From: Nocardioidaceae bacterium
GTDB lineage: Bacteria > Actinomycetota > Actinomycetes > Propionibacteriales > Nocardioidaceae
Direction of reading: 5' to 3'
Length of the DNA stretch: 32,000 nucleotides
Assembly (NCBI GenBank): GCA_017744365.1
Contig: JAGIBL010000001.1
Coordinates: 771,416-803,415 of the forward strand
Part shown: piece by piece, positions 4,465 through 21,897 of the stretch
Layout: the number at the start of each line of letters is the position of its first letter
How positions within the stretch are numbered: position 1 is the stretch's first letter
The notes under the pieces: model-generated
Databases searched by the model: none
What the model saw: only the letters and a program-made list of their open reading frames with translations
What the model was told of the DNA's origin: nothing
Translations under genes and position numbers: made by a program

Positions 4465-4467
4465 GCG

Positions 4468-5310
4468 TCAGGCGGTGACGCTGCGGACCGCCGGCAGGTC
4501 CATCGCGGCCAGCCGCTGGAGCTTGGCGTAGGCCTCGGAGTCGGGGGCGGCGGCGTAGACGACGAGCATGTGCTGCTCCTGCCCGGCCACCAGGAACGTC
4601 TCGTACTGCAGCTCGAGCGTGCCGACCAGCGGGTGCGCGAACTCCTTGGCGCCGTGGGTCTTCTCGTGCACCAGGTGCGAGGACCAGAGCTCCTCGAACT
4701 CGGGGCTGCGGCCGCGCAGGTCGCGCACCAGCGCGACCAGGTCGTCCTCGAGCGGCGGGCGCTGGGCGGCCAGCCGCAGGATGCCCACCGTGTCGCGGGC
4801 CGCGCGTTCCCAGTCCACGTGCAAGGTGCGCGCGGCCGGCTCCAGGAAGATGTGCCGGGCCAGGTTCCGCTCGTGGGGTGCCTGCCGGTCGAAGTCGGTG
4901 AGCAGCCGGGACGCCAGGTGGTTGTGCGCCAGCACGAACAGGCCGCGGTTGACCAGCACCGCAGGCAGCGTGCCGATCGCGTCGACCACCGCCTCCAGCC
5001 CGACCCGCAGCGGCGCCGCCTCGGTCGGGCGCAGCGCGCTGGCCGGCTGGGCGAGGTCGCGCAGGTGCGCGGCCTGGGCGCTGTCCAGGCGCAGGGCCCG
5101 GGCGATGCCCTTGAGCACCGAGTCCGACGGGTTCGCCCGGCCCTGCTCGAGCCGGACGTAGTACTCGGTGCTCAGCCCGACCAGCTGGGCGATCTCGGAG
5201 CGGCGCAGGCCGGCGACCCGGCGACGCCCGGTCATCGGCAGGCCGACGTCCTCGGGGCCGGCGGTCGCTCGCAGCGCCTTGAGGTAGGCGCCGAACTCGG
5301 TGCTGCTCAT
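4468..5310 (-). CDS. MmyB-like XRE-family transcriptional regulator
   Basis: The 280-aa protein has the N-terminal FGAYLKALR...GLRRSEIAQLVGLSTEYYVRLEQGR HTH and a C-terminal ligand-binding-type domain. It is divergent from the AKR operon. Confidence 0.9.
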   Translation of the reverse strand: MSSTEFGAYLKALRATAGPEDVGLPMTGRRRVAGLRRSEIAQLVGLSTEYYVRLEQGRANPSDSVLKGIARALRLDSAQAAHLRDLAQPASALRPTEAAPLRVGLEAVVDAIGTLPAVLVNRGLFVLAHNHLASRLLTDFDRQAPHERNLARHIFLEPAARTLHVDWERAARDTVGILRLAAQRPPLEDDLVALVRDLRGRSPEFEELWSSHLVHEKTHGAKEFAHPLVGTLELQYETFLVAGQEQHMLVVYAAAPDSEAYAKLQRLAAMDLPAVRSVTA

Positions 5311-5361
5311 GCTCGGATGCTAGGTCGGCTCCACGCCCGGGTCCACGCCTGCGCGGCCGCG

Positions 5362-5394
5362 ACCCTGGCCCAGCCAGGACCACCCTGGCCAGGG
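5362..5394. promoter_or_regulatory. Paired palindromes in the MmyB-regulator / AKR divergent region
   Basis: ACCCTGGCC is repeated at 5362-5370 and 5382-5390. CCTGG-cccag-CCAGG lies at 5364-5378. A perfect 12-bp palindrome CCCTGGCCAGGG lies at 5383-5394. Confidence 0.3.
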
Positions 5395-5485
5395 GTGGGG
5401 CCGGTTGAGCAGTCCCTCGCGCGCTCGCGCACGCCTACGTTCGTGGCGCGGCCGCACCCGGCGTCCGCTCGACGAACGGAACAGC

Positions 5486-6478
5486 ATGGAGTCACGAACG
5501 ATCGGGCCCGCCGGCCTGACCGTGTCGGCAGTCGGCCTCGGCTGCATGGGGATGAGCGCGTTCTACGGGCCGCGCGACGACGCCGAGTCCACCGCCACCA
5601 TCCGGCGCGCCCTCGACCTCGGGGTCAGCCTGCTCGACACCGCCGACCTGTACGGCCCCTGGACCAACGAGCGGCTGCTCGGCCGGGCGGTCGCGGGCCG
5701 CCGCGACGAGGTGGTGATCGCGACCAAGTGCGGCCAGGAGATCGACGAGCACGGCTCCTGGACCCGGCGGATGAACGGGCGGCCCGACTACGTACGACGT
5801 TGCGTGGACGGCTCGCTGGAACGCCTCGGCGTCGAGACCATCGACCTGTTCTACCTGCACCGGGTCGACCCGGACGTACCGGTCGAGGAGTCCTTCGGCG
5901 CCCTGGGCGAGGCGGTCGCGGCCGGCAAGGTCCGCGCCCTCGGCATCTGCGAGGCTGCCCCGGACACGATCCGGCGCGCGCACGCCATCGCGCCGCTGTC
6001 CGCGGTGCAGACCGAGTACTCGCTGTTCACCCGGGACGTCGAGCACAACGGCGTCCTCGACGTCTGCGCCGAGCTCGGCATCGGCTTCGTCGGCTACGCA
6101 CCGCTGGGCCGGGGCGTGCTGACCGGGCGACTGGGCTCGCTGGACGGTCTCGCCGACGACGACATCCGCCGGGCCTCGCCCCGGTTCCAGGCCGAGAACC
6201 TGGGCCGCAACCTCGCCGTGGTCGAGGAGGTCGGCCGGCTGGCCACCAGCCTCGGCGCCACCCCCGGTCAGCTCGCGCTCGCCTGGCTGCTGGCCCGCGG
6301 GCCCTCGGTGGTGGCCATTCCCGGCACCCGGCGGATCGGCTACCTCGAGGAGAACGCCGCCGCCGCGGACCTGCGTCTCGGCGTCGCCGAGCTGGCCCGC
6401 CTCGACGAGCTCGCCCCGCCCGGTGTCGCCGCCGGGCAGCGCTACACCGACGACTTCCTGCGTACCACGTACCGATGA
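5486..6478 (+). CDS. Aldo/keto reductase
   Basis: It starts at MESRTIGPAGLTVSAVGLGCMGMS and has DTADLYGPW, IDLFYLHRVD and IPGTRR motifs. The earlier ATG at 5405 adds an Arg-rich non-protein-like leader. Confidence 0.9.
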   Translation: MESRTIGPAGLTVSAVGLGCMGMSAFYGPRDDAESTATIRRALDLGVSLLDTADLYGPWTNERLLGRAVAGRRDEVVIATKCGQEIDEHGSWTRRMNGRPDYVRRCVDGSLERLGVETIDLFYLHRVDPDVPVEESFGALGEAVAAGKVRALGICEAAPDTIRRAHAIAPLSAVQTEYSLFTRDVEHNGVLDVCAELGIGFVGYAPLGRGVLTGRLGSLDGLADDDIRRASPRFQAENLGRNLAVVEEVGRLATSLGATPGQLALAWLLARGPSVVAIPGTRRIGYLEENAAAADLRLGVAELARLDELAPPGVAAGQRYTDDFLRTTYR

Positions 6479-7503
6479 GTCCCGAAGGAGAAGTGAGAGT
6501 GCTCGACGTCCACCAGTTCATCAACGGCGCGGACAGCTACGAGGCCGACGTGCTCGACGGGTTCGCCCGCGCGCACGCCGGCCTGGTCCGCTGGAACCGG
6601 GCGCCGTCGTACGTCGTACGCCGGAACCCGGCGCCGGACAAGGTCGCGCTGGTCTCCGGCGGCGGCTCCGGTCACGAGCCGCTGCACTCGGGCTTCGTCG
6701 GCGATGGGATGCTCGACGCCGCGGTGCCCGGGCACGTGTTCACCAGCCCCACCCCGGAGCAGGTCATCGCCGCCACGAAGGCTGTCGCCGGGGACGCCGG
6801 GGCGCTGCTGGTGGTGAAGAACTACACCGGCGACCTCATCAACTTCCGGCTCGCCGCGGAGATCCTGGACGCGTCCGGGGTCCGGGTGCGCTCGGTCGTG
6901 GTCGACGACGACCTGGCCACCGAGACCGACGGCGACGGCGACCCCGGCCGTCGCGGCACCGCCGCCACCCTGGTGGTGGAGAAGGTCTGCGGCGCGGCCG
7001 CCGAGCGCGGCGCCACCCTCGACGAGGTCGCCGACCTGGCCACGCGGGTGGTCGCCCGCAGCCGCAGCCTGGCGGTCTCGTTCAGCGGTGCCCAGCTGCC
7101 CGGCTCCAGCATCCGTTCCTTCGAGGTGCCCGCGGACGAGGTGGAGTTCGGCGTGGGCATCCACGGTGAGCGCGGCACCGCCCGGCATCCGCTGCGGCCG
7201 GTGCGCGAGCTGGTCGCCGAGCTGACCGCGAGGATCTCCGGCGCGCTCGATCTGGCCTCCGGCCACCGGGTGGTCGCGGTGGTCAACGGTCTCGGTGCCA
7301 CCCCGGCCGCCGAGCTCTACCTCGCGTACGGCGAGCTGGCCGGCTGCCTCGAGCGGGCCGGCGTGCGGCTGGCCCGCGGGCTGGTCGGCACCTACGTCAC
7401 CGCCCTGGACATGCGCGGCCTCTCGGTCACCCTGACGGTGGCCGACGAGGAGATCCTGGCGCTGTGGGACGACCCGGTCCGGACGGCGGCGCTGGCATGG
7501 TGA
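6475..7503 (+). CDS. dhaK: Dihydroxyacetone-kinase-type kinase, substrate-binding subunit DhaK
   Basis: It has the VSGGGSGHEP motif, KNYTGD and GVGIHGERG (covalent-His region). ATG 6475 overlaps the AKR stop (ATGA). An alternative start is GTG 6499, 8 nt after GGAG 6487-6490. This is only the last third of the 977-aa track ORF 4570..7503. Confidence 0.85.
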   Translation: MSPEGEVRVLDVHQFINGADSYEADVLDGFARAHAGLVRWNRAPSYVVRRNPAPDKVALVSGGGSGHEPLHSGFVGDGMLDAAVPGHVFTSPTPEQVIAATKAVAGDAGALLVVKNYTGDLINFRLAAEILDASGVRVRSVVVDDDLATETDGDGDPGRRGTAATLVVEKVCGAAAERGATLDEVADLATRVVARSRSLAVSFSGAQLPGSSIRSFEVPADEVEFGVGIHGERGTARHPLRPVRELVAELTARISGALDLASGHRVVAVVNGLGATPAAELYLAYGELAGCLERAGVRLARGLVGTYVTALDMRGLSVTLTVADEEILALWDDPVRTAALAW

Positions 7504-8123
7504 CCCCGGTGCTCACCGCTGCCCAGGCGCACGACTGGATCGTGGCCTTCCGCGACGTGGTGGTCGCGAACGCCGCCGAGCTCTCCGACCTCGACCGGCA
7601 GTCCGGCGACGGCGACTTCGGCACCAACATCACCACGGTGCTGAACGCGGTCGGCGGCCGGCTCGACCCGGGCGAGGACCGCGTCGCGGGGCACTTCGCG
7701 GTGCTGGCCTCGGGGTTCATGAACGGCGGCGGCACCAGCGGTCCGCTGTTCGCGATCTGGTTCCAGGGCTTCGCCGAGGCCTGCTCGACCGGAGCCTCCG
7801 CGGCCCAGCTCGCCGACGGCGCCGAGGCCGGCCTCGCCGGGGTCAGCCGGCTCGGCGGCGCCAAGCCGGGGGACAAGACCATGGTGGACGCGATGAGCCC
7901 GGCCGCGAAGGCGCTCCGGGTCGCGGCCGATCAGCTCGCCGTCCCCGAGGTCGCGCTGGCCGACGCCGCTCAGGCCGCAAGGACCGGGGCGACCGTGACC
8001 GCCTCGTACTCGGCGCGCCGCGGCCGGGCCAGCTACGTGGGCGCGGCCGCCCAGGGGGTGGTCGACCCGGGGGCGCTGGCGGTGGCGCTGTTCTTCGAGT
8101 CGGCCGCCGGTGCCGTCCGATGA
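7497..8123 (+). CDS. dhaL: Dihydroxyacetone-kinase-type kinase, ADP-binding subunit DhaL
   Basis: It has LSDLDRQSGDGDFGTN (DhaL nucleotide/Mg site), GGTSGPLF and GDKTMVDA. The start overlaps the dhaK stop. Confidence 0.85.
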   Translation: MVTPVLTAAQAHDWIVAFRDVVVANAAELSDLDRQSGDGDFGTNITTVLNAVGGRLDPGEDRVAGHFAVLASGFMNGGGTSGPLFAIWFQGFAEACSTGASAAQLADGAEAGLAGVSRLGGAKPGDKTMVDAMSPAAKALRVAADQLAVPEVALADAAQAARTGATVTASYSARRGRASYVGAAAQGVVDPGALAVALFFESAAGAVR

Positions 8124-9055
8124 CCCGGAAGGTCATCCTCACGGTCGCGCCCACCGGCGGGTTCCTGACCAAGGCGCAGACGCCGCACGTGCCGACGCAG
8201 CCGGCCGAGATCGTCGCGGACGTGGTCCGCTGCCACGGCGCCGGGGCCAGCATGGTCGCGCTGCACGCTCGTCGTCCCGACGACCAGGCCACCTGCGACC
8301 CTGCCGTCTACCGGGCGATCAACGAGGGCATCAGGGAGCGCTGCGACATCGTGCTCGGCAACTCGACCGGCGGCGGCTTCGACGGCGACCTGGCGATGCC
8401 CGGCACCGGGTCGCACCGGGAGTCCCGGGTGGAGGAGCGCTCCCGCGGCTGCGAGGGCGGCGCCGAGGTGTGCAGCGTGAACGCGATGACGGTGCTCGGA
8501 CAGACCAGCGGCCCGCCGGTGCTGATGAGCACCACCCGGGAGGAGTCTCGGGCCCTGGTCGCCAAGATGGCCGGACTCGGTGTGAAGCCGGAGTGGGAGG
8601 CGTTCAGCCCGACGCACCTGACCCAGGACATCGCCGCGCTGACCGCCGAGCTTCCCGGCCCGCACTGGGTCAGCCTCTGCTTCGGGCTGGACACGGTGTT
8701 CCAGGGCGCGGTCGGGTTCGACGTACGGACGCTGCAGTTCATGGTCGACCAGCTCCCGCCGAACGCGCTCTTCGGGGTCACCGGCCAGGGCCCGGTCCAG
8801 GTCTCCGCGCTGGCCGCCGCGATCGTGCTCGGCGGGCACGTCAGGGTCGGGATCGAGGACAGCCGCTGGGACGCGCACGGCGAGCTGCGCCCGAACGCCT
8901 GGTTCGTGGCCTGGGCGGTGCGGCTCATCGAGGCGCTCGGCTGCGCGGTGGCCACGCCGGCCGAAGCGCGGGCACTCCTCGGGCTGCCCTTGACGCGGAG
9001 CGGCCGTCAGGAGAACGCTGGGGAGCGTTCGACAACCCCTGTGGGCAGCGGGTAG
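8120..9055 (+). CDS. BKACE-family (DUF849) beta-keto acid cleavage enzyme-like protein
   Basis: The N-terminus KVILTVAPTGG...P.TP.EIA. matches the family, followed by ALHARRPDD and GHVRVGIEDS, the hallmarks of 3-keto-5-aminohexanoate cleavage enzyme relatives. It has an ATGA overlap with dhaL. Confidence 0.8.
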   Translation: MTRKVILTVAPTGGFLTKAQTPHVPTQPAEIVADVVRCHGAGASMVALHARRPDDQATCDPAVYRAINEGIRERCDIVLGNSTGGGFDGDLAMPGTGSHRESRVEERSRGCEGGAEVCSVNAMTVLGQTSGPPVLMSTTREESRALVAKMAGLGVKPEWEAFSPTHLTQDIAALTAELPGPHWVSLCFGLDTVFQGAVGFDVRTLQFMVDQLPPNALFGVTGQGPVQVSALAAAIVLGGHVRVGIEDSRWDAHGELRPNAWFVAWAVRLIEALGCAVATPAEARALLGLPLTRSGRQENAGERSTTPVGSG

Positions 9056-9114
9056 GAGCGCTCGGGCGAGAGGTGACTGGTGCCTACCTTCCACGGAGGT
9101 GCTCCTTGTCCAGA

Positions 9115-9501
9115 ATGCTCACCCGCGCAGCGGCGGTCCTCGCGGCCGTCGTCACCGCCGTCGCGCTCGGCACGGCGCCCGCGCACGCCACCGTCCACGA
9201 GATCGTCGCCCAGTGGTGCTCGGGCCACCCGCACCTGGAGCCCCCGGGCCTCACCGGCGGGAGCCACGCGGACAACTTCGCGCAGCCGCTCAACGCCTCC
9301 GGCTTCATCAGCGGCGTGGTGCCGTTCAAGGACGGGTTCCTGATCCAGTTCAACTTCGACAACCCGAACGCGAAGGTGGTCCCGGTCGGCGAGCCGATCC
9401 CGATCGGCACCCTCAACGGCAAGCCGCTCTACCTGCAGCCGATCGCGCCCGACCCGTCGTTCCCGGCGTTCATGAACTGCCCGAAGCTGGGGACCGTGTA
9501 G
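9115..9501 (+). CDS. Small secreted protein of unknown function
   Basis: The 128-aa protein has a signal peptide MLTRAAAVLAAVVTAVALGTAPAHA followed by T. The mature part has two Cys, one near each end. GGAGG lies at 9096-9100. I recognised no family. Confidence 0.55.
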   Translation: MLTRAAAVLAAVVTAVALGTAPAHATVHEIVAQWCSGHPHLEPPGLTGGSHADNFAQPLNASGFISGVVPFKDGFLIQFNFDNPNAKVVPVGEPIPIGTLNGKPLYLQPIAPDPSFPAFMNCPKLGTV

Positions 9502-10546
9502 CGGCGATCCGGGCGGCCTGCTCCTCGGCGGCGGCCGCGTACATCCGGCGGATCCGGGCCACCCCGAGGTCGTGCTGGTACAGGTGCTCGCCCTGATCGG
9601 CGTCCGGGGCGACGTTCTCGAGCAGGCCTCGGTCCTGCTCGAGAACCTGCCAGTGCTTGGCCTCGAGCCCGGTGCGGTAGAGGAACCGCCACACGTCGCG
9701 CTCCCAGCCGCTCACCTTCCGCGTGCGCCAGTGGAAGACGGCGGTCACGTCCGCGGTCACCGGGGTCGGCATGCCGACGATCCCGAACGGGCCGCCCGGT
9801 CCGGCCTCGGGGCCGTACGGGATCTCCAGGTCGACGTACGCCAGGCCGCTGTGCTCGACGTACTCGACCCAGTCGAAGTTCTGACCGCGCTGGTCGGTCT
9901 TCTCGAAGAAGAAGCCCCGGTCGGTCTCGCGGATCCGGAACCGGGCCGCGGTGTCGCCGCGGTACATCGAGTGCGAGTCGGCGTGCAGGAACGCGCCGTG
10001 CATCGGGTCGAGCACGTTGTCGAGGTAGAAGCGCCACGGCGTGCGCCACTCGGCGAAGCTGACGAAGTCGCTGTGCTCGGGCGCGGAGAGCCGCTCGGGC
10101 ATCACCAGCGGCGGCGCCGCAGAGTCCGGGGTCGCCGGGAACCACGCGAAGATCACCCCGGCGGCCTCGGCGCAGGTCAGCGTCCGGGTGGCCTGCTTGC
10201 CCTCCAGCGCGCAGCCCGGCATGCCCGGCACCCGGACCACGGTGCCGGTGCCGTCGACCTCGACGCCGTGGTACTGGCACTTGACCCGGTCGCCGAGGTG
10301 CTGGCCGACGGACAGCGGCGCGTTGCGGTGCGGGCACCGGTCGGCGAGCACCGAGAGCGCGCCGGTGGCGTCGCGGAAGACCAGCCAGTCCTTGCCCAGC
10401 CGGGTCACCTTGCGCATCTCGCCCGGCCGCACCAGCCGCGAGGGCAGCACCGGGTACCAGCGGTCCCGCAGCCCCGTCGCGCGCAGCTCCTCGACGGTGA
10501 GCTCGCCGGTGTTCCGGCCGGGCGCGTACCAACCCTGGACGGTCAT
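9470..10546 (-). CDS. Rieske [2Fe-2S] non-heme-iron oxygenase, phthalate-family / class IA type monooxygenase or demethylase component
   Basis: The Rieske motif is CPH-x16-CQYH (residues 71-93). The mononuclear iron motif is DPMHGAFLH (D-x2-H-x4-H). At 358 aa it fits single-subunit oxygenases that pair with PDR-type reductases. Confidence 0.9.
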   Translation of the reverse strand: MTVQGWYAPGRNTGELTVEELRATGLRDRWYPVLPSRLVRPGEMRKVTRLGKDWLVFRDATGALSVLADRCPHRNAPLSVGQHLGDRVKCQYHGVEVDGTGTVVRVPGMPGCALEGKQATRTLTCAEAAGVIFAWFPATPDSAAPPLVMPERLSAPEHSDFVSFAEWRTPWRFYLDNVLDPMHGAFLHADSHSMYRGDTAARFRIRETDRGFFFEKTDQRGQNFDWVEYVEHSGLAYVDLEIPYGPEAGPGGPFGIVGMPTPVTADVTAVFHWRTRKVSGWERDVWRFLYRTGLEAKHWQVLEQDRGLLENVAPDADQGEHLYQHDLGVARIRRMYAAAAEEQAARIAATRSPASGSS

Positions 10547-10547
10547 C

Positions 10548-10769
10548 TCAGGCCCCCAGCCGCTGCATCTCGGCGCGGAACGTCTGCTCGTCCCACGGCT
10601 TCCCGTCCGGCGCGGCCGACCCGTGCTCGTTGAGGCCGCGCACCAGCGCGGGCAGCTCGACGTGACCCTCGGCGAAGACCCGCTGGATCAGGCCGGCCAG
10701 CTTCTCCTCGTACGGCGTGGGCGGTTCGTCTCGCGTCTGCACCGCCTCCACGTACAACGGGAAGTCCAT
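10548..10769 (-). CDS. Small (73 aa) hypothetical protein, possibly a recombinase-like HTH-fold accessory protein
   Basis: SD GGAG lies 8 nt upstream. The stop lies 1 nt before the Rieske start. The C-terminal LVRGLNEHGSAAPDGKPWDEQTFRAEMQRLG resembles the LN..G....G..W motif of recombinase-domain helices. Confidence 0.55.
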   Translation of the reverse strand: MDFPLYVEAVQTRDEPPTPYEEKLAGLIQRVFAEGHVELPALVRGLNEHGSAAPDGKPWDEQTFRAEMQRLGA

Positions 10770-10791
10770 GTCGTTGCTCCGTTCACTCTCG

Positions 10792-11286
10792 TTAGGTGTC
10801 GGTGTCGAGGGCGACCAGCCCGTCGACGATGGCGAGGAAGGACGAGGCCCAGGCCGTGAACGAGGCCGGGCGGTGCTCGTGGACCGGCGCCGGCACCCCG
10901 TCGACGACGACGAAGACGCCGTTCGGGATCTGCCCGGCCAGCGTCTGCGCCGCGCTCAGGTCGGTGGCGGGGTCGGGCCGGGCCGCGACCACGAGGGCCG
11001 GCGCCGGCACCCGCGGCAGGTCGGCGGTCACGTCGCCGTACGCGCCGTCCGGTCCGGAGTCGGCGAGCACCAGGCCGCGGACCAGGTCCGGGCGCAGGAG
11101 AGCGACCCGTACGGCGATCACGCCGTCGTTCCCGGTGGCGACCAGGTGAGCCGGCCCGTCCAGGCCCGCGACCACCGACGCCACACGGGTCTCCAGGTCG
11201 TCCCCGGTCACCTCGACCACCCGGGTCGACCAGGAGAGCACGGGCGCGGAGCCTGCGCCGCGCAGCGCGATCACCTCGGGACTCAT
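10792..11286 (-). CDS. Short alpha/beta-hydrolase-fold-like protein (164 aa, no cap domain)
   Basis: SD GGAGGAG lies upstream and the gene ends in TAA. The core order matches the fold: LVATGNDGVIA at the nucleophile elbow, VLADSG, LVVAARPDP and PAPVHEHRP. Confidence 0.55.
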   Translation of the reverse strand: MSPEVIALRGAGSAPVLSWSTRVVEVTGDDLETRVASVVAGLDGPAHLVATGNDGVIAVRVALLRPDLVRGLVLADSGPDGAYGDVTADLPRVPAPALVVAARPDPATDLSAAQTLAGQIPNGVFVVVDGVPAPVHEHRPASFTAWASSFLAIVDGLVALDTDT

Positions 11287-11295
11287 CTCTCCTCC

Positions 11296-12054
11296 TCAGG
11301 CCATCACGAAGCCGCCGTCGACGACCACGGTCTGGCCGGTGACGTAGCGGGCGTCCTCGGAGAGCAGGAACGCGACCACCCCGGCGACGTCGCCGGGGGT
11401 CTGGTCGATGGGTAGCGCGCGGTGCTCGCGGTAGAGCGCGTACCGCTCGGCCGGCACGGACTCGGTGGCCTCGACCCGGGTCAGCCCGGGCGCGACCGCG
11501 TTGACCCGGACGCCGTCGGGTCCGGCGTCGCGAGCCATCCCGCGGGTCAGCGCGATCACCGCGCCCTTGGAGGCGACGTAGTGCGCGAGCCGGGGCGAGC
11601 CGTAGAGGGCGGCGTCCGAGGCCAGGTTGACGATGGCGCCGCGGTGACCGGCCAGCTGGTCGTAGAGCGCGGCGGAGACCAGCCAGGTGCCGCGCACGTT
11701 GACGTCGAGGACCCGGCTGAACGCCTCGTCCGGGATCTGCCAGAAGGGCAGGCCGCCGACCCCGTCGGCCAGGGCGGCGTTGTTGACCAGGCCGTGCGCG
11801 CCGCCCAGGTCCGCCACCGCCGCGGCCAGCGTGGCCACCGAGCCGGGATCGGTCACGTCGGTGTCGACCCGGGTCACCCGCACCCCGGCCGCGCTCAGGT
11901 GCTCGACCCCACGGGCGGCGATCTCGGCACGCAGCTCGGCGACGACCACGTGCGCACCGGCCCGGCCGAGGTGCTCGGCGACGGCCAGCCCGAGGCCGCG
12001 GCCCGCGCCGGTGACCACGTAGGTACGGGGCTCGGGGGAGGAGTGCGTGGACAT
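11296..12054 (-). CDS. SDR-family oxidoreductase
   Basis: It has VTGAGRGLGLA (TGxxxGxG), NNAA and the catalytic YVASK (YxxxK), with a PG..T tail. Confidence 0.9.
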   Translation of the reverse strand: MSTHSSPEPRTYVVTGAGRGLGLAVAEHLGRAGAHVVVAELRAEIAARGVEHLSAAGVRVTRVDTDVTDPGSVATLAAAVADLGGAHGLVNNAALADGVGGLPFWQIPDEAFSRVLDVNVRGTWLVSAALYDQLAGHRGAIVNLASDAALYGSPRLAHYVASKGAVIALTRGMARDAGPDGVRVNAVAPGLTRVEATESVPAERYALYREHRALPIDQTPGDVAGVVAFLLSEDARYVTGQTVVVDGGFVMA

Positions 12055-12066
12055 GGCGGCGTCTTC

Positions 12067-13017
12067 TCAGAGGTCGAGGGTGATCTCGGGGTCGAGGGCG
12101 CGGGAGACGCAGACGAACATCACGTTGCCGGCGTGCTTCTCGGACTCGGTGAGCAGGTAGTCGCGGTGGTCGACCCGGCCGGCGAGCACCTTGGTCTCGC
12201 AGGTGCCGCAGATGCCCTCGGTGCACGAGCTGGGCACGTCGATCCCGGCCTCGGCCAGCGCGGCGAGCGCGGTGCTCCCGGCCGGGACCCGGACCACCCG
12301 GCCCGAGGCCCGGCAGACGATCTCGAAGGGCTGGTCCGGGCCGTCGTGAGCGACCGGGGCGGGCGCCTTGAACCGTTCCAGCCGGAGCGTGCCCGGGTCG
12401 TCGAGCACCGCGGCGACCGCGGCCAGCAGCGGCTCCGGGCCGCAGGCGTAGACGAGGGTGCCCGGCTCGGGACCGGCGAGCAGCGCGGCCAGGTCGGGCG
12501 GGCCGCCGGCCTGGTCGTCGGCGTGCAGCCGGACCCGGTCGGGCCCGAGAGCGAGCAGCTCCTCGGTGAAGGCCATCGAGGCCGCGCTGCGCCCGGCGTA
12601 CAGGAGCTGCCAGTCGGCGCCGCGACGGGCCAGCTCGCGCGCCATCGCCAGGATCGGGGTGATCCCGATGCCACCCGCGACCAGCCGGTAGTGCTCGGCG
12701 GGCTCGAGGGCGAAGCTGTTGCGCGGTCCGGAGACCCGGACCAGGTCGCCCGGCCTGAGCGTGGCGTGCACGTACCGGCTGCCGCCGCGCGAGTCGGCCT
12801 CGTCGAGCACCGCGACGGTCCAGCCGTCGGGGTCCGCCGGGTCGGAGCAGAGCGAGTACTCGCGGGCCAGCCCGTTGGGCAGGTGCACGGTCAGGTGCGC
12901 GCCCGGCTCCCACGACGGCAGTGTGCCGCCCCTGGCGTCGCGGAACCGGACGGCGAGCACGCCGTCGGCTTCCCAGGTGAGCTGGGTGACCCGCACGTCG
13001 TGGCTGGGGGACTCCAT
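12067..13017 (-). CDS. PDR/VanB-type oxygenase reductase (FMN/NAD-binding FNR module plus C-terminal plant-type 2Fe-2S)
   Basis: It has REYSL (RxYS flavin motif), GGIGITP (NAD-binding) and the C-terminal CTEGICGTCETKV...VCVS cluster motif. SD GAAGGAG lies at 13030-13036 on the minus strand. Confidence 0.9.
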   Translation of the reverse strand: MESPSHDVRVTQLTWEADGVLAVRFRDARGGTLPSWEPGAHLTVHLPNGLAREYSLCSDPADPDGWTVAVLDEADSRGGSRYVHATLRPGDLVRVSGPRNSFALEPAEHYRLVAGGIGITPILAMARELARRGADWQLLYAGRSAASMAFTEELLALGPDRVRLHADDQAGGPPDLAALLAGPEPGTLVYACGPEPLLAAVAAVLDDPGTLRLERFKAPAPVAHDGPDQPFEIVCRASGRVVRVPAGSTALAALAEAGIDVPSSCTEGICGTCETKVLAGRVDHRDYLLTESEKHAGNVMFVCVSRALDPEITLDL

Positions 13018-13059: not shown

Positions 13060-13155
13060 GTTTGCCACGATGGCGCGCGGGCCTCGCTCCGTCAATCCCC
13101 GCACGTGTAGATCGATCACCCTTTTCCGCCCTGAGGAACTTCGCGCATCAAAGCC

Positions 13156-13183
13156 TTGACACTAGGCATCTTATATCTAAGGT
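13156..13183 (+). promoter_or_regulatory. Sigma-70-type promoter candidate for module A (TTGACA, 16 nt, TAAGGT)
   Basis: TTGACA lies at 13156-13161. TAAGGT (TANNNT) lies at 13178-13183, 44 nt upstream of ATG 13227. It overlaps the pseudo-palindrome CTTATATCTAAG (13170-13181). Confidence 0.45.
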
Positions 13184-13226
13184 TTCGGCCAATCGTCTCG
13201 GTAGTCGAGTCCGAAGGAGACACCCG

Positions 13227-14414
13227 ATGCGTACCCGAACCCTCAGCGGCGGGCTCGCCCGCGTGACCGGAGCCGTGGCCGTGCTGCTGCTGGCGACCGG
13301 CGCGCTGGCGGCCTGCTCGGAGTCCTCCGACGACAAGCCCAGCACCGGCGGCAGCGGGAGCGGCGACGCCAGCGCGGCGATCGTCGCCGAGGCTCAGCAG
13401 GCCACCGACGCCCTCTTCGACACCGGCAGCGAGACGCCTCCGCCCGCGGACGGGCCGGCCGGGGTCAAGGGCAAGACGGTCTGGGTGGTCTCCTGCGGCC
13501 AGGCGGTCACCGGCTGCTCGCTGCTCACCGACGCGGCCGTGACCGCGAGCAAGCAGATCGGCTGGAAGACCACGCTGTGCGACGGCAACTTCAACGCCGG
13601 CGACCAGTACGGCAAGTGCATCCGGCAGGCGGTCGCGGCCGGCGCCGACGGGATCATCCTCAACTCGGTCGACTGCGTCGCGGTGACCCAGCCGCTCAAG
13701 GAGGCCAAGGCCGCCGGCGTCAAGGTGGCCGCGGTGAACACGTTCCCGTGCGACGGCGCGAACGCCGACCTGGCCACCATGGTGGTGCCCTCCACCGCGA
13801 CGCCGACCATCGACGCCTACGGCCAGGCCGCCGGCAAGGCACAGGCCGACTACCTGATCGCCACGAGCAAGGGCAAGGCGAAGGTGCTCAACTTCCGCTT
13901 CGTCGACAACTTCCTCGCGATCGAGGTGAACAAGGGCTTCGAGGCCGAGATGGCCACCTGCGGCACCTGCTCGGTGAAGAACACCGACATCACCCTGGCC
14001 GACTACGTCAATCCCTCGACGTTCGGGCAGAAGTCCAACGCCGCGCTGCTCTCCGCGCCGGACGCGACCGCGGTGCACGTGCCCTTCGACTCGTTCCTGA
14101 CCAGCGGCGTCGGGCAGGCGATCACCAGCGCCGGCCGGGCCGGCAAGCTCGACTCGATCGGGTTCAACGGCTTCGAGGCCAACCTCAACCTGATCCGCGA
14201 CGGCAAGGGCCAGACCGCCGCGCTGGGCGCCGACCAGGAGTGGGCCGGCTGGGCCGCCGCGGACACGATGAACCGGCTGCTTGCCGGCGCCGAGCCGGTC
14301 GCCGAGGGCATGGGCTTCAAAATGGTCGACGCGGACAAGAACCTGCCCTCCTCGGGCAGCTACCGCAGCGACATCGACTTCAAGGCGGCCTACGAGGCGG
14401 TCTGGTCGAAGTGA
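13227..14414 (+). CDS. ABC transporter substrate-binding lipoprotein, type I PBP (RbsB/LacI-like)
   Basis: SD GAAGGAG at 13213-13219 lies 7 nt before the ATG. It has a signal peptide with lipobox LAAC and a Ser/Gly-rich tether. The upstream 55 codons of the track ORF have no support. Confidence 0.85.
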   Translation: MRTRTLSGGLARVTGAVAVLLLATGALAACSESSDDKPSTGGSGSGDASAAIVAEAQQATDALFDTGSETPPPADGPAGVKGKTVWVVSCGQAVTGCSLLTDAAVTASKQIGWKTTLCDGNFNAGDQYGKCIRQAVAAGADGIILNSVDCVAVTQPLKEAKAAGVKVAAVNTFPCDGANADLATMVVPSTATPTIDAYGQAAGKAQADYLIATSKGKAKVLNFRFVDNFLAIEVNKGFEAEMATCGTCSVKNTDITLADYVNPSTFGQKSNAALLSAPDATAVHVPFDSFLTSGVGQAITSAGRAGKLDSIGFNGFEANLNLIRDGKGQTAALGADQEWAGWAAADTMNRLLAGAEPVAEGMGFKMVDADKNLPSSGSYRSDIDFKAAYEAVWSK

Positions 14415-16965: not shown

Positions 16966-17867
16966 TGACGGCGGCCGGTGAAAACATCGTGTTGACGAGT
17001 GAATTCGACGCTCCGTACGCCTACAGCGCGATCACCGAGCGGCCCCACCGGCCGTTCCCCGGGGGCGCCCGGGTGGCGGTCTGGGTCGGCGTCAACGTGG
17101 AGGCCTACGCCTTCGGCCAGCAGGCGCTCAGCGTCGCTCCGCACGGGCCGTTCATCCCGCCCGACGCGATGAGCTACTCCTGGCGCGACTACGGCAGCCG
17201 GGTCGGGATCTTCCGGATGCTCGAGGCGATGAACGCGGCCGGCATCCGCGGCAGCGCGATCACCAACGCCGAGGTGCTGCACCGGTACCCGCCGGTGGTC
17301 GAGGCGATCCGGGCCGCCGGGTGGGACTGGGTCGCGCACGGGCGCAACAACTCGATCCTGCAGACCTCGATGGACCCCGACGCCGAGCGCGCCTACGTCG
17401 CCGAGGTCACCGCGACCTTCACCGAGGTGCTCGGGCTGGCGCCGCGCGGCTGGCTGGGCCCGGCCCGGGTCGCCACCCTGGCCACCAACCAGCTGCTCGC
17501 CGACGCCGGCTACTCCTACGCGCTGGAGTGGAACTGCGACGACCAGCCCTTCGACTTCGACCTCGAGCGCGGCCGGCTCGTCTCGGTGCCCTACTCGACC
17601 GAGGTCAACGACATCATCGCGTTCGTCTTCCGTGGCTCCTCGGGCGCGGAGTTCCGGCAGCTGGTCCTCGACCACGTCGGCACCCTGCGCGCCCAGGGCG
17701 AGCGCTGGCCCTCGGTCCTCGGGCTCAGCGTGCATCCCTTCCTGTGCGGGCAGCCCGCGAAGCTGCCGTACCTGATGGAGGCGCTGGCCGAGGTGGCCGC
17801 GCACCCGGACGTGTGGATGACCACCAGCGACGAGATCGCCGCCTGGTACCGGGAGGAGGGCCGTTGA
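16965..17867 (+). CDS. Polysaccharide-deacetylase-fold protein, PuuE (allantoinase)-like subgroup, copy A
   Basis: It has a TGATG overlap with the permease. It carries YSWRDYGSRVGIFR, the WVAHGRNN, PRGWLGP and VHPFL motifs, and is a clear paralog of 28409..29305. Confidence 0.8.
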   Translation: MTAAGENIVLTSEFDAPYAYSAITERPHRPFPGGARVAVWVGVNVEAYAFGQQALSVAPHGPFIPPDAMSYSWRDYGSRVGIFRMLEAMNAAGIRGSAITNAEVLHRYPPVVEAIRAAGWDWVAHGRNNSILQTSMDPDAERAYVAEVTATFTEVLGLAPRGWLGPARVATLATNQLLADAGYSYALEWNCDDQPFDFDLERGRLVSVPYSTEVNDIIAFVFRGSSGAEFRQLVLDHVGTLRAQGERWPSVLGLSVHPFLCGQPAKLPYLMEALAEVAAHPDVWMTTSDEIAAWYREEGR

Positions 17868-18622
17868 GCGCCTCCTTCGCGGGCCGGCACGCGGTGGTCA
17901 CCGGGGCCGCCAGCGGCATCGGGCGCCGTACGGCGGAAGCACTCGCCGAGCGCGGCGCCACGGTGGCCTGCCTGGACCGCGACGGTGACCGGCTCGAGGA
18001 GGTGGTGGCCGCCCTGGGCGGCGCCGCCACCGGGCACGTCGCCGACGTGACCAGCTCGGCGCAGGTCGACGCCGCCTTCGACGCGGCCGCCGCCACCGCA
18101 TCGCTGGACCTGGTGGTCAACATCGCCGGCGCCGCCTTGATGGGCGCGGTGCACGAGCTCTCCGACGAGGACTGGGCCGACTGCCTGGGCCGGAACCTGA
18201 CCGGCACCTTCTACTGCTGTCGCGCCGCGGTCCGGCACCTCGGCGCGCGCGGCGGGGTGATCGTGAACATGTCGTCCTCGCTGGGCCGGATCGCCGCGCC
18301 GCGGTTCGCGGCCTACAGCGCGGCCAAGGCGGGCGTGCGCGCGCTGACCATGCAGATGGCCCGCGACTACGGCCCGGCGATCCGGGTGAACTCGGTCTCG
18401 CCGGCGGCCACCGACACCCCGGGCGTCCGGTACGCCATCGAGTCCGCTGCGGACCCGGCGGCGGTGGAGGCCGAGATCGCCGGCGGCAACCACATCGCCG
18501 GCCGGCTGGCCACCACCGACGAGGTGGTCGCCGGGATCCTCTTCGCCGCCTCGGCGGAGTCGTCGTTCATGTTCGGCCACGACCTGGTGCTCTGCGGCGG
18601 CCAGACCACGGTCGCGTACTGA
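17864..18622 (+). CDS. SDR-family oxidoreductase
   Basis: The TTG start follows SD GGGAGGAGGG (17851-17860) and overlaps the upstream stop. It has VTGAASGIG, the catalytic YSAAK and SVSPAATDTP. Confidence 0.85.
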   Translation: MSASFAGRHAVVTGAASGIGRRTAEALAERGATVACLDRDGDRLEEVVAALGGAATGHVADVTSSAQVDAAFDAAAATASLDLVVNIAGAALMGAVHELSDEDWADCLGRNLTGTFYCCRAAVRHLGARGGVIVNMSSSLGRIAAPRFAAYSAAKAGVRALTMQMARDYGPAIRVNSVSPAATDTPGVRYAIESAADPAAVEAEIAGGNHIAGRLATTDEVVAGILFAASAESSFMFGHDLVLCGGQTTVAY

Positions 18623-18644: not shown

Positions 18645-19337
18645 ATGCCAGAACCCTGGGACCACCTACTCGGCGAGCGCGACCGGGCCGTCCTCGCGGC
18701 CAGTGGCTACGGGCAGTCCCGCAAGCTCCGGTCGCCGGCCGCGGTGCTGGTCATCGACCTGACGTTCGACTTCCTCGGCGACCGGCCGGAGCCGATCCTG
18801 GAGTCGGTCACCCGGTTCCCGAACAGCTGCGGCGCCGAGGGCTGGGCCGCGGCCGAGCGGCTCGCGCCGGTGCTGGCCGCGGCGCGCGCGAGCGACGTCC
18901 CGGTCCTGTACACCACCCGCAGCACCGAGCACCCGGTGCTGGAGGAGCTGACCTGGGGTGGCAAGCAGACCAACGCCGGCCGCGCGGCGATGGGGGAGAG
19001 CGCGGCGACCGGCTTCCCGCCCGCCATCGCGCCGCAGCCCGGCGACACCGTGATCGAGAAGACCAAGCCGAGCGCGTTCTTCGACACCCCGCTGCGGCAG
19101 TACCTGGTGCTGCTCGGGATCCGGCAGCTCTTCGTCGCCGGCGCCACCACCAGCGGCTGCGTGCGGGCCACCGTCGTGGACGCGTTCTCGCACGGGTTCC
19201 GCACCGCGGTGCTGGCCGACTGCGTCGCGGACCGGATCGAGGCCTCGCACGCGATCGCCCTGTTCGACCTGCAGGCCAAGTACGCCGACCTGACCGACGC
19301 GGCCACGGCGACCGGCGCGCTGGGGGAGGGCCGGTGA
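18645..19337 (+). CDS. Isochorismatase-like cysteine hydrolase, N-carbamoylsarcosine amidase / maleamate amidohydrolase-type (copy 1)
   Basis: The D-K-C triad context is VLVIDLTFDF, KTKPSAFF and GATTSGCVRATVVDA. Confidence 0.85.
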   Translation: MPEPWDHLLGERDRAVLAASGYGQSRKLRSPAAVLVIDLTFDFLGDRPEPILESVTRFPNSCGAEGWAAAERLAPVLAAARASDVPVLYTTRSTEHPVLEELTWGGKQTNAGRAAMGESAATGFPPAIAPQPGDTVIEKTKPSAFFDTPLRQYLVLLGIRQLFVAGATTSGCVRATVVDAFSHGFRTAVLADCVADRIEASHAIALFDLQAKYADLTDAATATGALGEGR

Positions 19338-20332
19338 GCTCCCTCGCGCTCAGCTACGGCGGCCTGCTCTACCTGGACCGGACCCTGCCGCTCTACCTCG
19401 ACCAGGTCCGCCCGGCCGGGATCGACCTGACCTACGTACCGTTCGACTCGCCCGGTGACCTGTTCCGGCGGCAGTGCCAGTACGCGCAGTTCGAGGTCTC
19501 CGAGCTCTCCGCCTCCAGCTACCTGGCGATGCTCAGCCGCGGCGACGACCGGTTCGTGGCGCTGCCGCTGCCGGTCTCCCGGAACTTCCGGCACAGCCAG
19601 GTCTACGTGCACACCGACGCCGGCATCGCCCGTCCCGAGGACCTGCGCGGCCGCCGCGTCGGCATCCTGGAGTACCAGATGACCGCGGCGCTGTGGATCC
19701 GCGGCTTCCTCGCCGACGACCACGGTGTCACCCCCGACCAGGTCGACTGGCACACCGGCGGCCTGGTCGAGCCGGCCTGGGCCGAGCGCCTCGAGCTGGA
19801 CCTTCCCGAGGGGGTGCGGCTGACGCCGATCCCGGCCGGGGCGACGCTGGAGGCGATGCTCGAGGCCGGCGAGCTGGACGCGCTGGTCACCGTGCAGCCG
19901 CCGCAGCGCTTCGGCCAGGTGCCGCAGCTGCGCCGGCTCTTCGAGGACGCGACCGCGGTCGAGCGCGACTACCACCGGCGCACCGGGATCTTCCCGATCA
20001 TGCACCTGGTCGTCGTACGGCGTGACGTCTACGAGCGGCACCGCTGGGTGGCGCTCGCGCTCTACGAGGCCTTCGCGCGGGCCAAGGCGCAGGGGATGGG
20101 GCGGCTGCGCGCGATCACGGGCCTGGCCGTCGGGCTGCCCTTCCTGGCCGCCGCCCTCGCCGAGGTCGACGAGGCCTTCGCCGGCGACGCCTTCCCGTAC
20201 GGCGTCGAGCCGAACCGGCTCACGCTGCAGAAGCTGAGCGACTACGCCTTCGAGCAGGGCATCGCGGCCCGCCGGGTGCCGGTCGAGGAGATGTTCGCCC
20301 CCGAGACCTACCAGGAGCCGATCGCCCTATGA
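19334..20332 (+). CDS. PhtD-like protein (family annotated as 4,5-dihydroxyphthalate decarboxylase; cytosolic periplasmic-binding-protein fold)
   Basis: It has a GTGA overlap and no signal peptide. It carries the motifs FEVSELSASSYL, FVALPLPVSRNFRHSQVYV, LRGRRVGILEYQMTAALWIRG and IFPIMH. Confidence 0.7.
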   Translation: MSSLALSYGGLLYLDRTLPLYLDQVRPAGIDLTYVPFDSPGDLFRRQCQYAQFEVSELSASSYLAMLSRGDDRFVALPLPVSRNFRHSQVYVHTDAGIARPEDLRGRRVGILEYQMTAALWIRGFLADDHGVTPDQVDWHTGGLVEPAWAERLELDLPEGVRLTPIPAGATLEAMLEAGELDALVTVQPPQRFGQVPQLRRLFEDATAVERDYHRRTGIFPIMHLVVVRRDVYERHRWVALALYEAFARAKAQGMGRLRAITGLAVGLPFLAAALAEVDEAFAGDAFPYGVEPNRLTLQKLSDYAFEQGIAARRVPVEEMFAPETYQEPIAL

Positions 20333-21897
20333 GCACGCGCAAGCCGCGGATCGCCGTCGTCGCCGGTCCGACCGCGACGATCCTGAACACCCCGCCGCTC
20401 GTGGCCGGCCCGCTGCGCCCGCAACGGCTCGGCGCCGCGACGACGGTGTGGGTCGAGCACCTGAGCGCGCACCCGATGGAGAGCGACCTCGGCGCCCGGC
20501 AGGCCGGACCCGACGGCTACCTGACCGAGGACGGCTCGGTCAGCCCCGAGCGGACCGCCGAGACCGACGTCGCGGTGGTCGCGGTCAGGCTCGACGCCGG
20601 CGCGCTCTACCCGCTGCCGTACACCCCGCGCCCGGCCGACGGCTGGGAGCCGGGCGGCTGGGACGACCCGCGGCAGACGTTCTTCCCGGACGCCTCCCGG
20701 GCCTACGAGGAGATCGACGCGCTGGTCGAGATGGACGGCCGCGACGGCACCCTGAGCGCCCTGGCCGACTTCGTGCACGTCCGGGTGCTGCCCTCGGCCG
20801 GGCGGACCAGCCCGCCGGACTGCGAGCGCCTCGGCCACGACTACTTCCCGTACTGGCCGCCGCACCGCCGCGGCGAGCCCGACCGCGGCGCCCTGGCCCG
20901 GCTGACCAACGAGCTCGGCGCCCTGCTGGCCGGAGGCGAGGTGGACGCGGTCCAGTACCTCGAGGGCAGCGCCAGCATCGAGGAGTCGCTGTACTGGCTG
21001 GCGCTCACCCTCGACACCGACCGGCCCGTCGTCGGGCACTGCGCCCAGGTGCCGCACCAGGCGCTCGGCTCGGACGGCCCGCGCAACATCGTCGACGGCG
21101 TCCTGTACGTCGCCTCCGGTGCCGCGCTCGACGAGGACGGCCGCGACCGGGTCGGCCCGGTGCTGGTCGCCGACGGCCAGGTCTTCGCCGCCCGCGAGGT
21201 GGCCAAGACCGACGGCCGGTACGGCGGCTACCGCGCGACCGGCGGACTCGGCGGCGTGGTCGGAGCCGTGCACAGCTACCGCGGCGTGCACGTGGACCAC
21301 CTCAGCACCCGGCGGCACACCCGGACCTCCGAGCTGACCGTCGCCCGCCTGCCCGCGCAGGTGCGCCACGTGCACGGCCGGCTCGCGACCGGCCTGCGGG
21401 TCGGCACCACGACCGTGAAGGACGCGGCCGGACGGCTGCGCGAGGACGCGGTGCCGTCCGTGCTGGTGCACAAGTACGGCCGCTACACCGGCGATGCCGG
21501 CACCGACTCGGCCCGCGAGCGGGCGGCGCTGTGGGGCTGGATCGAGGCCTACCTGGACGGCGCCACCCGGCCGCTGGGCATCGTGCTGGAGGGCAACCCG
21601 TCGTACGGGCACGCCGACCCGTGGGAGGAGGCTGTGCTCACCACCGCCCTGCACGCCGGCGTCCCGGTGGTGCGCGCCGGGCGTGGCAACGGGTCCGGCT
21701 TCGTGCGGATCCCGCCGATGCCGTTCGCGGCGGCCAGCAACCTGACCGCGGCCAAGGCCCGGATCCTGCTGACCGCGGCGCTGCTCAAGCTGGGCTCGCT
21801 GGAGCCGGCGGCCGACCCGCGGAACCCGACCGAGGCCGAGCGGCAGCGCACCGCCGACCAGCTCGCCGCCTACCAGGAGCTCTTCGATGAGCACTGA
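20329..21897 (+). CDS. Divergent, enlarged asparaginase/glutaminase-fold protein (522 aa)
   Basis: It has an ATGA overlap. The blocks run in the same order as type II asparaginase: RIAVVAGPTATI, YLEGSASIEESLYWLALTLDTDRPVV, LGSDGPRNIVDGV, REVAKTD, GIVLEGNPSYG and NLTAAKARILLTAAL. Confidence 0.75.
   Translation: MSTRKPRIAVVAGPTATILNTPPLVAGPLRPQRLGAATTVWVEHLSAHPMESDLGARQAGPDGYLTEDGSVSPERTAETDVAVVAVRLDAGALYPLPYTPRPADGWEPGGWDDPRQTFFPDASRAYEEIDALVEMDGRDGTLSALADFVHVRVLPSAGRTSPPDCERLGHDYFPYWPPHRRGEPDRGALARLTNELGALLAGGEVDAVQYLEGSASIEESLYWLALTLDTDRPVVGHCAQVPHQALGSDGPRNIVDGVLYVASGAALDEDGRDRVGPVLVADGQVFAAREVAKTDGRYGGYRATGGLGGVVGAVHSYRGVHVDHLSTRRHTRTSELTVARLPAQVRHVHGRLATGLRVGTTTVKDAAGRLREDAVPSVLVHKYGRYTGDAGTDSARERAALWGWIEAYLDGATRPLGIVLEGNPSYGHADPWEEAVLTTALHAGVPVVRAGRGNGSGFVRIPPMPFAAASNLTAAKARILLTAALLKLGSLEPAADPRNPTEAERQRTADQLAAYQELFDEH

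Follow-up and report, generated by a model that had tools for sequence, protein, structure and literature searches.

A 32,000-nucleotide stretch of DNA from a Nocardioidaceae bacterium (GenBank assembly GCA_017744365.1, contig JAGIBL010000001.1, positions 771,416 to 803,415; hereafter the window) encodes a protein from an uncharacterised branch of the asparaginase superfamily, one that is enlarged in structure and rewired at its catalytic centre. The protein has the two-domain α/β fold of type II L-asparaginases and belongs to a discrete, widespread family of enlarged asparaginase-fold proteins rather than being a one-off; at present it counts as an enzyme family, without amounting to a system of a new kind. 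Few amidohydrolases have been studied as thoroughly as the L-asparaginases, which also serve as important drugs and for which Thr-Lys-Asp and Thr-Tyr-Glu triads are regarded as definitive. In the family, the fold, the lysine and, it seems, the first threonine are kept, whereas the triad aspartate is universally lost together with the residues for amino-acid recognition; the family therefore amounts to a natural experiment in rebuilding the chemistry and specificity of the fold. On balance, we lean towards a threonine-nucleophile amidohydrolase that acts on a carboxamide other than an amino acid.

The gene is defined as follows:

20329..21897, + strand: coding sequence of the 522-residue asparaginase-fold protein, stop codon included, based on the list of open reading frames, the translation, third-position G+C, PF00710, AlphaFold and Foldseek

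Within a window of about 73% G+C overall, the third codon position of this frame has a G+C of 0.96-0.99 over its full length, which marks it as a true coding gene. Its product is cytoplasmic and carries no signal peptide.

An earlier reading of the letters and translations (the sequence-only reading) had recognised an asparaginase fold, and profile, sequence and structure searches all recovered it. The Pfam model of the asparaginase N-terminal domain, PF00710, matched with an E value of 4.5e-10 (39.8 bits against a gathering threshold of 22.5), over profile positions 64-162 only; the model of the C-terminal domain, PF17763, reached 20.5 bits, below its threshold of 34.6. The best sequence matches in the PDB were the Pectobacterium and Erwinia asparaginases (E = 3e-15), and a profile of 92 family members aligned to E. 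coli AnsB by hhalign with 98% probability over residues 202-486. Structure prediction, which had been suggested as a check, gave a confident model on the 92-sequence alignment (predicted local distance difference test score (pLDDT) of 90.6; predicted template modelling score (pTM) of 0.91) and located the inserted sequence. In a Foldseek search of the PDB with this model, the top 50 matches were type II asparaginases or glutaminase-asparaginases throughout (E of about 1e-17 to 1e-16; template modelling scores of 0.74-0.88, normalised to the target).

The same scores bear on whether the protein might be a true L-asparaginase or L-glutaminase with an unusual motif that scavenges nitrogen. Passing the PF00710 gathering score speaks for such an enzyme. 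Against it, the match to the NCBIfam model of type II asparaginases, TIGR00520 (E = 8.5e-13, 47.9 bits), lies far below the curated cut-off of 314 bits, as does that to NF008304 (44.7 bits against 506).

Relatives are numerous and scattered. A search of 5.8 billion proteins returned 382 matches, the best 120 of which are full-length relatives of 511-584 residues that are 41-78% identical to the window protein, with a query coverage of 99-100% among the 120 matches listed. Most are unnamed or labelled 'L-asparaginase', 'hypothetical' or 'asparaginase domain-containing protein', the last being the NCBI name in Blastococcus. A scan in which each species was represented by a single genome gave at least 531 relatives in many phyla, the carriers including Streptomyces, Kribbella, Blastococcus, Rhodococcus, Nocardioides, many Alphaproteobacteria, Chloroflexota and Binatia, among others. 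Clustering at 50% identity left 295 representatives at E ≤ 1e-30, mostly fragments with about 20 of full length, and 1227 representatives at E ≤ 1e-10, a level at which canonical asparaginases presumably start to appear. None of 400 other sampled Actinomycetota genomes contained a member, and the family is rare and patchy in its distribution.

Conservation was assessed over the 92 aligned members. Family members are 510-585 residues long and homologous from end to end, the shared parts extending to the insert, hairpin and C-terminal FD(T/x)H terminus described below. Sixteen family-invariant residues, T17, R30, Q32, H48, P97, R124, E128, R152, Y175, Y222, W223, K293, S334, K476, R478 and H522, are all present in the window protein, and the family consensus at the site of the classical HGTDT motif is (E/Q)GSPx. 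As the remodelled motif and the extra length occur throughout the members, both are ancestral to the family; features that had been taken as a specialisation of the window protein are instead hallmarks of a large, pre-existing family. The window protein itself sits in a small, long-stemmed clade linked to a catabolic hydrolase operon, and relative to the consensus this clade carries W210Y, P215A, R241V and P425S as changes close to the active-site motifs, as well as A296G.

Four short segments of the protein correspond, with differing degrees of certainty, to the catalytic motifs of AnsB:

20365..20382, + strand: GPTATI, residues 13-18, directly past β-strand 1 (residues 7-12), with T17 as the candidate nucleophile and putative counterpart of AnsB Thr12

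20464..20475, + strand: SAHP, residues 46-49, after the strand at 38-43, a possible counterpart of the AnsB Ser58-Gln59 loop

20962..20976, + strand: EGSAS, residues 212-216, in place of HGTDT, with S214 at AnsB Thr89 and A215 at AnsB Asp90 (phmmer and hhalign)

21199..21213, + strand: VAKTD, residues 291-295, with K293 at AnsB Lys162 and D295 in place of AnsB Asn164 (alignments)

The sequence-only reading had found GPTATI, EGSAS and VAKTD by eye, and the translation places all three at the residues it gave. Alignments with the Erwinia, Pectobacterium and E. coli asparaginases put EGSAS on HGTDT, with AnsB His87 on E212, and K293 on Lys162, and reveal no canonical catalytic residue that had been overlooked. 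S214 is found in 90 of the 92 members (Thr in the other two), K293 in every member and D295 in 88. Position 215, that of Asp90, is Pro in 82 members, Ala in seven and Ser in three; it is never acidic, and Asp90 is thus absent from the whole family.

The equation of TGGTI with GPTATI, threonine retained, has fared less evenly. T17 is invariant (92/92) and follows strand 1, with T15 variable (T/N/M/A/Q), but no significant alignment lies behind the equivalence: a profile alignment of residues 1-60 with the N terminus of AnsB had a probability of 0.3%, that is, no significant match, and the global hhalign alignment mis-places this N terminus onto residues 119-194. Because this region does not align significantly, we can only infer that T17 is AnsB Thr12, on the grounds that it is invariant, that it directly follows strand 1 and that the structures match overall. 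The SAHP segment, with S46 in 86 members (Thr in the other six) and H48 in all, would correspond to AnsB 'NIGSQDM' when mapped by eye from the order of secondary-structure elements, a mapping that puts Ala47 at the presumed position of Gln59. AnsB Glu283 falls opposite a five-residue gap, a deletion, in the alignment. A conserved lid tyrosine (AnsB Tyr25) was not seen, in loops whose alignment is uncertain. The lid segment after GPTATI varies from 12 to 37 residues across the family and is shortest in the window clade; it is the least confident part of the AlphaFold model, and its position matches that of the mobile asparaginase lid.

In AnsB, the α-amino group of L-Asn is held by Gln59, Asp90 and Glu283 of the neighbouring subunit, and Asp90 belongs to the catalytic triad of classical asparaginases. 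A substrate other than an α-amino acid is suggested by the universal absence of Asp90 and the deletion around Glu283, and also by Ala47, which probably occupies the place of Gln59. For a true asparaginase or glutaminase, Ser46 could retain the carboxylate-binding role of AnsB Ser58; even so, with both Asp90 and Glu283 missing from the α-amino site, we consider that identity quite improbable.

An active enzyme that draws on the nucleophile-plus-Lys machinery of the fold is suggested by the strict or nearly strict conservation of T17, H48, K293, S214 and D295 across phyla at about 45% overall identity. A protein without catalytic activity, in which the fold serves for binding or as a scaffold, would be in line with the degenerate HGTDT motif and with the failure to reach the curated NCBIfam and Asparaginase_C cut-offs. 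It would have to account, however, for the invariance of T17, K293 and H48 and the near-invariance of S214 and D295 over that evolutionary distance, and for a gene that keeps its operonic place among enzymes; we regard it as very improbable.

The second distinguishing property is size. Relative to mature AnsB (326 residues), the window protein has an excess of about 196 residues, rather than the roughly 120 estimated at first, distributed over three places:

20476..20883, + strand: family-wide insert of about 135 residues (residues ~50-185), from the substrate loop to the helix before motif 2, enriched in Pro, Asp, Glu and Trp

21355..21453, + strand: extra β-hairpin at residues ~343-375 between the N- and C-terminal domains, with strands at 344-351 and 355-362 (block unaligned by hhalign; model)

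21790..21894, + strand: lengthened C-terminal helix segment (residues 488-522), ending in the family-invariant ...YQxxFD(T/E)H

The spacing of the first two motifs had been read correctly, with 197 residues from T17 to S214 against 77 from Thr12 to Thr89 in AnsB. An inserted domain at about residues 25-195 had also been proposed, and here the composition and the existence of an insertion held up, mainly over residues ~50-185, whereas its autonomy did not. Residues 25-195 contain more Pro (11.1% versus 5.7% in the rest of the protein), Trp (2.3% versus 1.1%), Asp (9.4% versus 5.7%) and Glu (7.0% versus 5.1%). The insert is conserved throughout the family, with P97, P120, R124, E128, R152 and Y175 invariant, and most of it is predicted at a pLDDT of 81-97 within the full-length model. 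Predicted alone (residues 47-188, 48-sequence alignment), it dropped to a pLDDT of 53.8 and a pTM of 0.36. An autonomous inserted domain was accordingly dropped, because the insert is confident only in its full-length context; this collapse in confidence points to an elaboration that packs on the core. At the other end of the protein, H522 is invariant and all family members end there; in the global hhalign alignment it falls on the C-terminal Tyr326 of AnsB, and YQELFDEH falls on IQQIFNQY.

So extensive a remodelling could also mean that the fold has been put to a different chemistry: opening of a cyclic imide or lactam, hydrolysis of an ester or thioester, or transfer of an acyl or amide group on a pathway intermediate. 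A triad residue has been lost in 92 of 92 members while an invariant H48 and a near-invariant D295 have been gained, the large conserved insert brings invariant Arg, Glu and Tyr residues beside the presumed substrate loop, and the family occurs inside biosynthetic (phenazine) as well as catabolic clusters. To our knowledge, however, every characterised member of the asparaginase fold is an amidohydrolase, and the nitrile hydratase-type neighbours described below suggest a primary amide as substrate. We judge a change of chemistry unlikely, yet the most probable of the rival readings.

The genome as a whole offers further constraints. The only PF00710 matches in it are the window protein and one paralog, 51% identical (G000:C12:338216-339775, - strand; read as L011:9214-10776). 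The paralog gene is divergent to nitrile hydratase β/α genes, with RidA and an ABC (ATP-binding cassette) permease following it (neighbours at L011:7837-12136); close by are genes for an SBP_bac_3 protein and an aminotransferase, together with two MarR genes. The neighbour of a nitrile hydratase is normally an amidase, and the paralog locus resembles a nitrile-to-acid module with the asparaginase-fold protein in the place of the usual amidase. Elsewhere, the genome carries a class 3 asparaginase of the Rhizobium etli type (PF06089, E = 5.6e-106; G000:C8:519041-519997, + strand), which is likely to be the housekeeping enzyme; a plant-type asparaginase was not found in the genome. A true asparaginase function for the window protein might draw on the lack of a plant-type enzyme and of any type I/II enzyme beyond the paralog. 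By contrast, the class 3 enzyme makes a housekeeping role for the window gene unnecessary, and members of the family are set in specialised operons and biosynthetic clusters. The sequence-only reading had called the protein a specialised amidohydrolase rather than a housekeeping asparaginase; the second half of that statement agrees with the class 3 gene, and the amidohydrolase half is suggested by the conserved residues and the gene neighbourhoods.

We compared these neighbourhoods across 82 family loci. No neighbour gene is universal among them, and the settings follow the family tree. RidA lies near the family member in 11 loci, an amidase signature (AS)-type amidase in ten and importers with Peripla_BP_5/6 proteins in eight; a nitrile-hydratase-α-like protein is encoded immediately downstream in eight, and seven or eight loci are phenazine clusters with a PhzH-like, carboxamide-forming asparagine synthase. 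In the Streptomyces/Kribbella/Microbispora clade (L016-L028, L040), the gene lies inside phenazine clusters, with DUF488 immediately upstream and PhzF immediately downstream and with PhzA/B, an O-methyltransferase, the PhzH-like asparagine synthase, a glyoxalase-fold protein and RidA nearby. Binatia, deltaproteobacterial and Chloroflexota loci (L055, L060, L073, L088, L091 and related ones; positions ~3000-10800 in each) share a string in the order RapZ-like protein, SAM synthetase (MetK), AdoHcy hydrolase, 198-residue protein, asparaginase-fold protein and 357-residue protein. The 198-residue protein has no Pfam or NCBIfam match; the 357-residue protein is nitrile-hydratase-α-like in its C-terminal half and also exceeds the NHLP-leader threshold. 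Alphaproteobacterial clades adjoin AS-type amidases and peptide- or amide-type ABC importers.

Many of these neighbours make or process amides (nitrile hydratase, PhzH-like synthase, AS amidases and amide-type importers), and a carboxamide hydrolase fits such company. The recurrence of RidA is a hint that some of the products may be enamines or imines. The phenazine loci also call to mind GatD, the enlarged asparaginase-fold glutaminase subunit of the archaeal Glu-tRNA(Gln) amidotransferase, which does not serve free asparagine breakdown. The window protein resembles GatD in having an asparaginase fold enlarged by extra sequence, and it could likewise be an ammonia donor that hydrolyses Gln or Asn to feed a partner enzyme, a use of the fold for which GatD is the precedent and for which the PhzH-like amidotransferase near the Streptomyces gene would be a candidate. 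The PhzH-like proteins of the Streptomyces loci have glutaminase domains of their own, however (GATase_6/7), and no partner is conserved across clades. GatD, moreover, keeps the Thr/Thr/Asp/Lys set and pairs with GatE, whereas the catalytic Asp is absent from the window protein and its family and no GatE-like gene occurs in the 82 loci. A donor role therefore strikes us as hardly credible.

In the window, the gene closes a plus-strand run that begins at 13062. The order is a CUT2-type ABC importer, a PuuE-allantoinase-like hydrolase, a short-chain dehydrogenase/reductase (SDR), an isochorismatase-family hydrolase that resembles NicF and N-carbamoylsarcosine amidase (CSHase), a protein like 4,5-dihydroxyphthalate decarboxylase (PhtD-like) and the asparaginase-like gene, an operon that by Pfam and PDB matches is rich in amide hydrolases. 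Three of these genes stay with the asparaginase-like gene in its closest relatives, and the last of them overlaps it:

17864-18622, + strand: SDR gene, conserved with the asparaginase-like gene in the closest relatives (Pfam and PDB matches)

18645-19337, + strand: NicF/CSHase-like isochorismatase-family hydrolase, likewise conserved (Pfam and PDB matches)

19334-20332, + strand: PhtD-like protein, likewise conserved (Pfam and PDB matches)

20329..20332, + strand: ATGA overlap of the asparaginase-like start codon with the stop codon (TGA) of the PhtD-like gene, giving translational coupling (read directly from the sequence)

The gene had been described as the translationally coupled last gene of its operon, and so it is: beyond the ATGA overlap at its start, the next gene is a convergent marR that ends 31 nucleotides downstream. 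Loci L004 and L006, whose homologs are 57% and 77% identical, have the same SDR, isochorismatase, PhtD-like and asparaginase-like order and keep the same transporters too; the module is limited to these closest relatives. A general pairing of the family with PhtD-like proteins was considered and rejected, as the two are adjacent only in the window, L004 and L006. Locus L003 has a PhtD-like homolog, 35% identical to the 19334-20332 product, about 2.5 kb from its family member. The 19334-20332 product is itself a close homolog of a solved 4,5-dihydroxyphthalate decarboxylase (PDB 9jp7, E = 1e-71); in Pfam it has weak matches to solute-binding-protein folds alone (NMT1, Phosphonate-bd).

Taking an amidohydrolase for non-amino-acid carboxamides as the working reading, we propose the following course of events. 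T17 would attack the carbonyl of the carboxamide, and S214 and K293 would form the second catalytic pair, with the near-invariant D295 perhaps taking over the role of the lost Asp90. Recognition of an α-amino group would have been given up, Gln59, Asp90 and Glu283' being left without a counterpart. Together with the variable lid loop, the large insert may reshape the pocket for another carboxamide, probably one that bears a carboxylate and possibly an aromatic one. In the window operon, an imported nitrogen-containing compound would yield the intermediate from which the enzyme frees ammonia, with the PuuE-like, SDR, NicF-like and PhtD-like enzymes as presumable partners. That the substrate here is a carbamoyl-substituted aromatic or pyridine carboxylate is only a guess, prompted by the co-occurrence of a Rieske oxygenase, a PDR-type reductase, SDRs, a PhtD-type decarboxylase and the NicF-like and PuuE-like hydrolases.

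Several points weigh against this reading of the family. The T17-Thr12 equivalence lacks significant sequence support, and the mappings of Glu283 and Asn248 fall in loops, where the alignments are unreliable. With Asp90 lost, the enzyme may have changed its chemistry and not its substrate. No partner gene is universal and the neighbourhoods vary from clade to clade, so that guilt by association is weak for the window clade. Finally, no characterised family member was found in the literature.

A more ambitious version would make of these elements a novel amidase class with the asparaginase fold as its scaffold, with the triad rewired to Ser214-Lys293 plus a relocated Asp295, a pocket for (hetero)aromatic carboxamides formed by the insert and lid, and the window clade as a variant that works with a PhtD-type decarboxylase in an as yet undescribed nitrogen-heterocycle or phthalamate-like pathway. 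Its candidate substrates would be phenazine-carboxamide-type compounds, nitrile-hydratase products, and carbamoyl-benzoate or carbamoyl-pyridine-carboxylate intermediates. As a whole, this combination is speculative, and we would not expect all of it to hold.

Set beside the type II asparaginases (E. coli AnsB/EcAII and the Erwinia/Pectobacterium and Wolinella enzymes), the window protein shares the two-domain α/β fold and Lys162 (K293) and has, in T17, a putative counterpart of the Thr after strand 1. Also retained are the GxxEE helix that follows motif 2 as well as the DGP(x)N block, the C-terminal KAR(I/L)LL helix and the terminal F-x-x-aromatic end. It differs from AnsB in being cytoplasmic without a signal peptide and 522 rather than 326 residues long, in carrying EGSAS for HGTDT (Thr89 to Ser, Asp90 lost) with Glu283 in a deletion, in its insert of about 135 residues after the substrate loop and its hairpin at 343-375, and in its specialised operon. 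The AS amidases (PF01425) that partner nitrile hydratases may be analogous in genomic role, given that the paralog and one clade adjoin nitrile-hydratase genes, whereas their fold and catalytic residues (a Ser-cisSer-Lys triad) are unrelated. The two families are not simply interchangeable, because they co-occur in ten of the 82 loci.

Two published loci appear to contain members of the family, judged by description. One group of Streptomyces phenazine clusters includes an 'asparaginase of unknown function' among its modification genes (Dar et al., eLife 2020, PMC7591250), and the dermacozine locus of Dermacoccus abyssi contains a hypothetical gene of 1617 nucleotides, D1832_RS13670, whose best match is an 'asparaginase' of Blastococcus sp. 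DSM 44205 (PMC7143476). That Blastococcus strain is the source of our family locus L024. The Streptomyces, Kribbella and Microbispora homologs are 44-48% identical to the window protein over the full length; the phenazine-cluster members form a clade of their own with a biosynthetic setting, in contrast to the small clade of the window protein with its catabolic hydrolase operon. Knowledge of a substrate would give soil-bacterial genes a proper annotation in place of the present mislabels 'L-asparaginase' or 'hypothetical', account for the 'asparaginase of unknown function' of the Streptomyces phenazine clusters and help to decode the two orphan nitrogen-releasing operons of the window.

The flanking genes of the window yielded some additional observations. 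The solute-binding protein of the CUT2-type importer (13062-14414, + strand) is 450 residues long, with about 150 residues ahead of its Peripla_BP_4 domain, and in the PDB it matches solved ribose or sugar binders only weakly (E = 3e-6); a common sugar is probably not what it binds. The divergent upstream operon (9470-13017, - strand) encodes a VanA/phthalate-family Rieske oxygenase and a PDR-type reductase. The best PDB match of the oxygenase (class IA) is a putative phthalate 4,5-dioxygenase, at a distant E = 1e-18. We had considered the matches of the importer binding protein and of the Rieske oxygenase as pointers to the substrate and set them aside as too weak or distant to fix it. The same divergent operon holds an SDR whose second-best NCBIfam match, below the cut-off, is pyridoxal 4-dehydrogenase, and a short open reading frame that resembles an α/β-hydrolase fragment. 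A comparable Rieske-reductase set accompanies the homologous module in locus L004.

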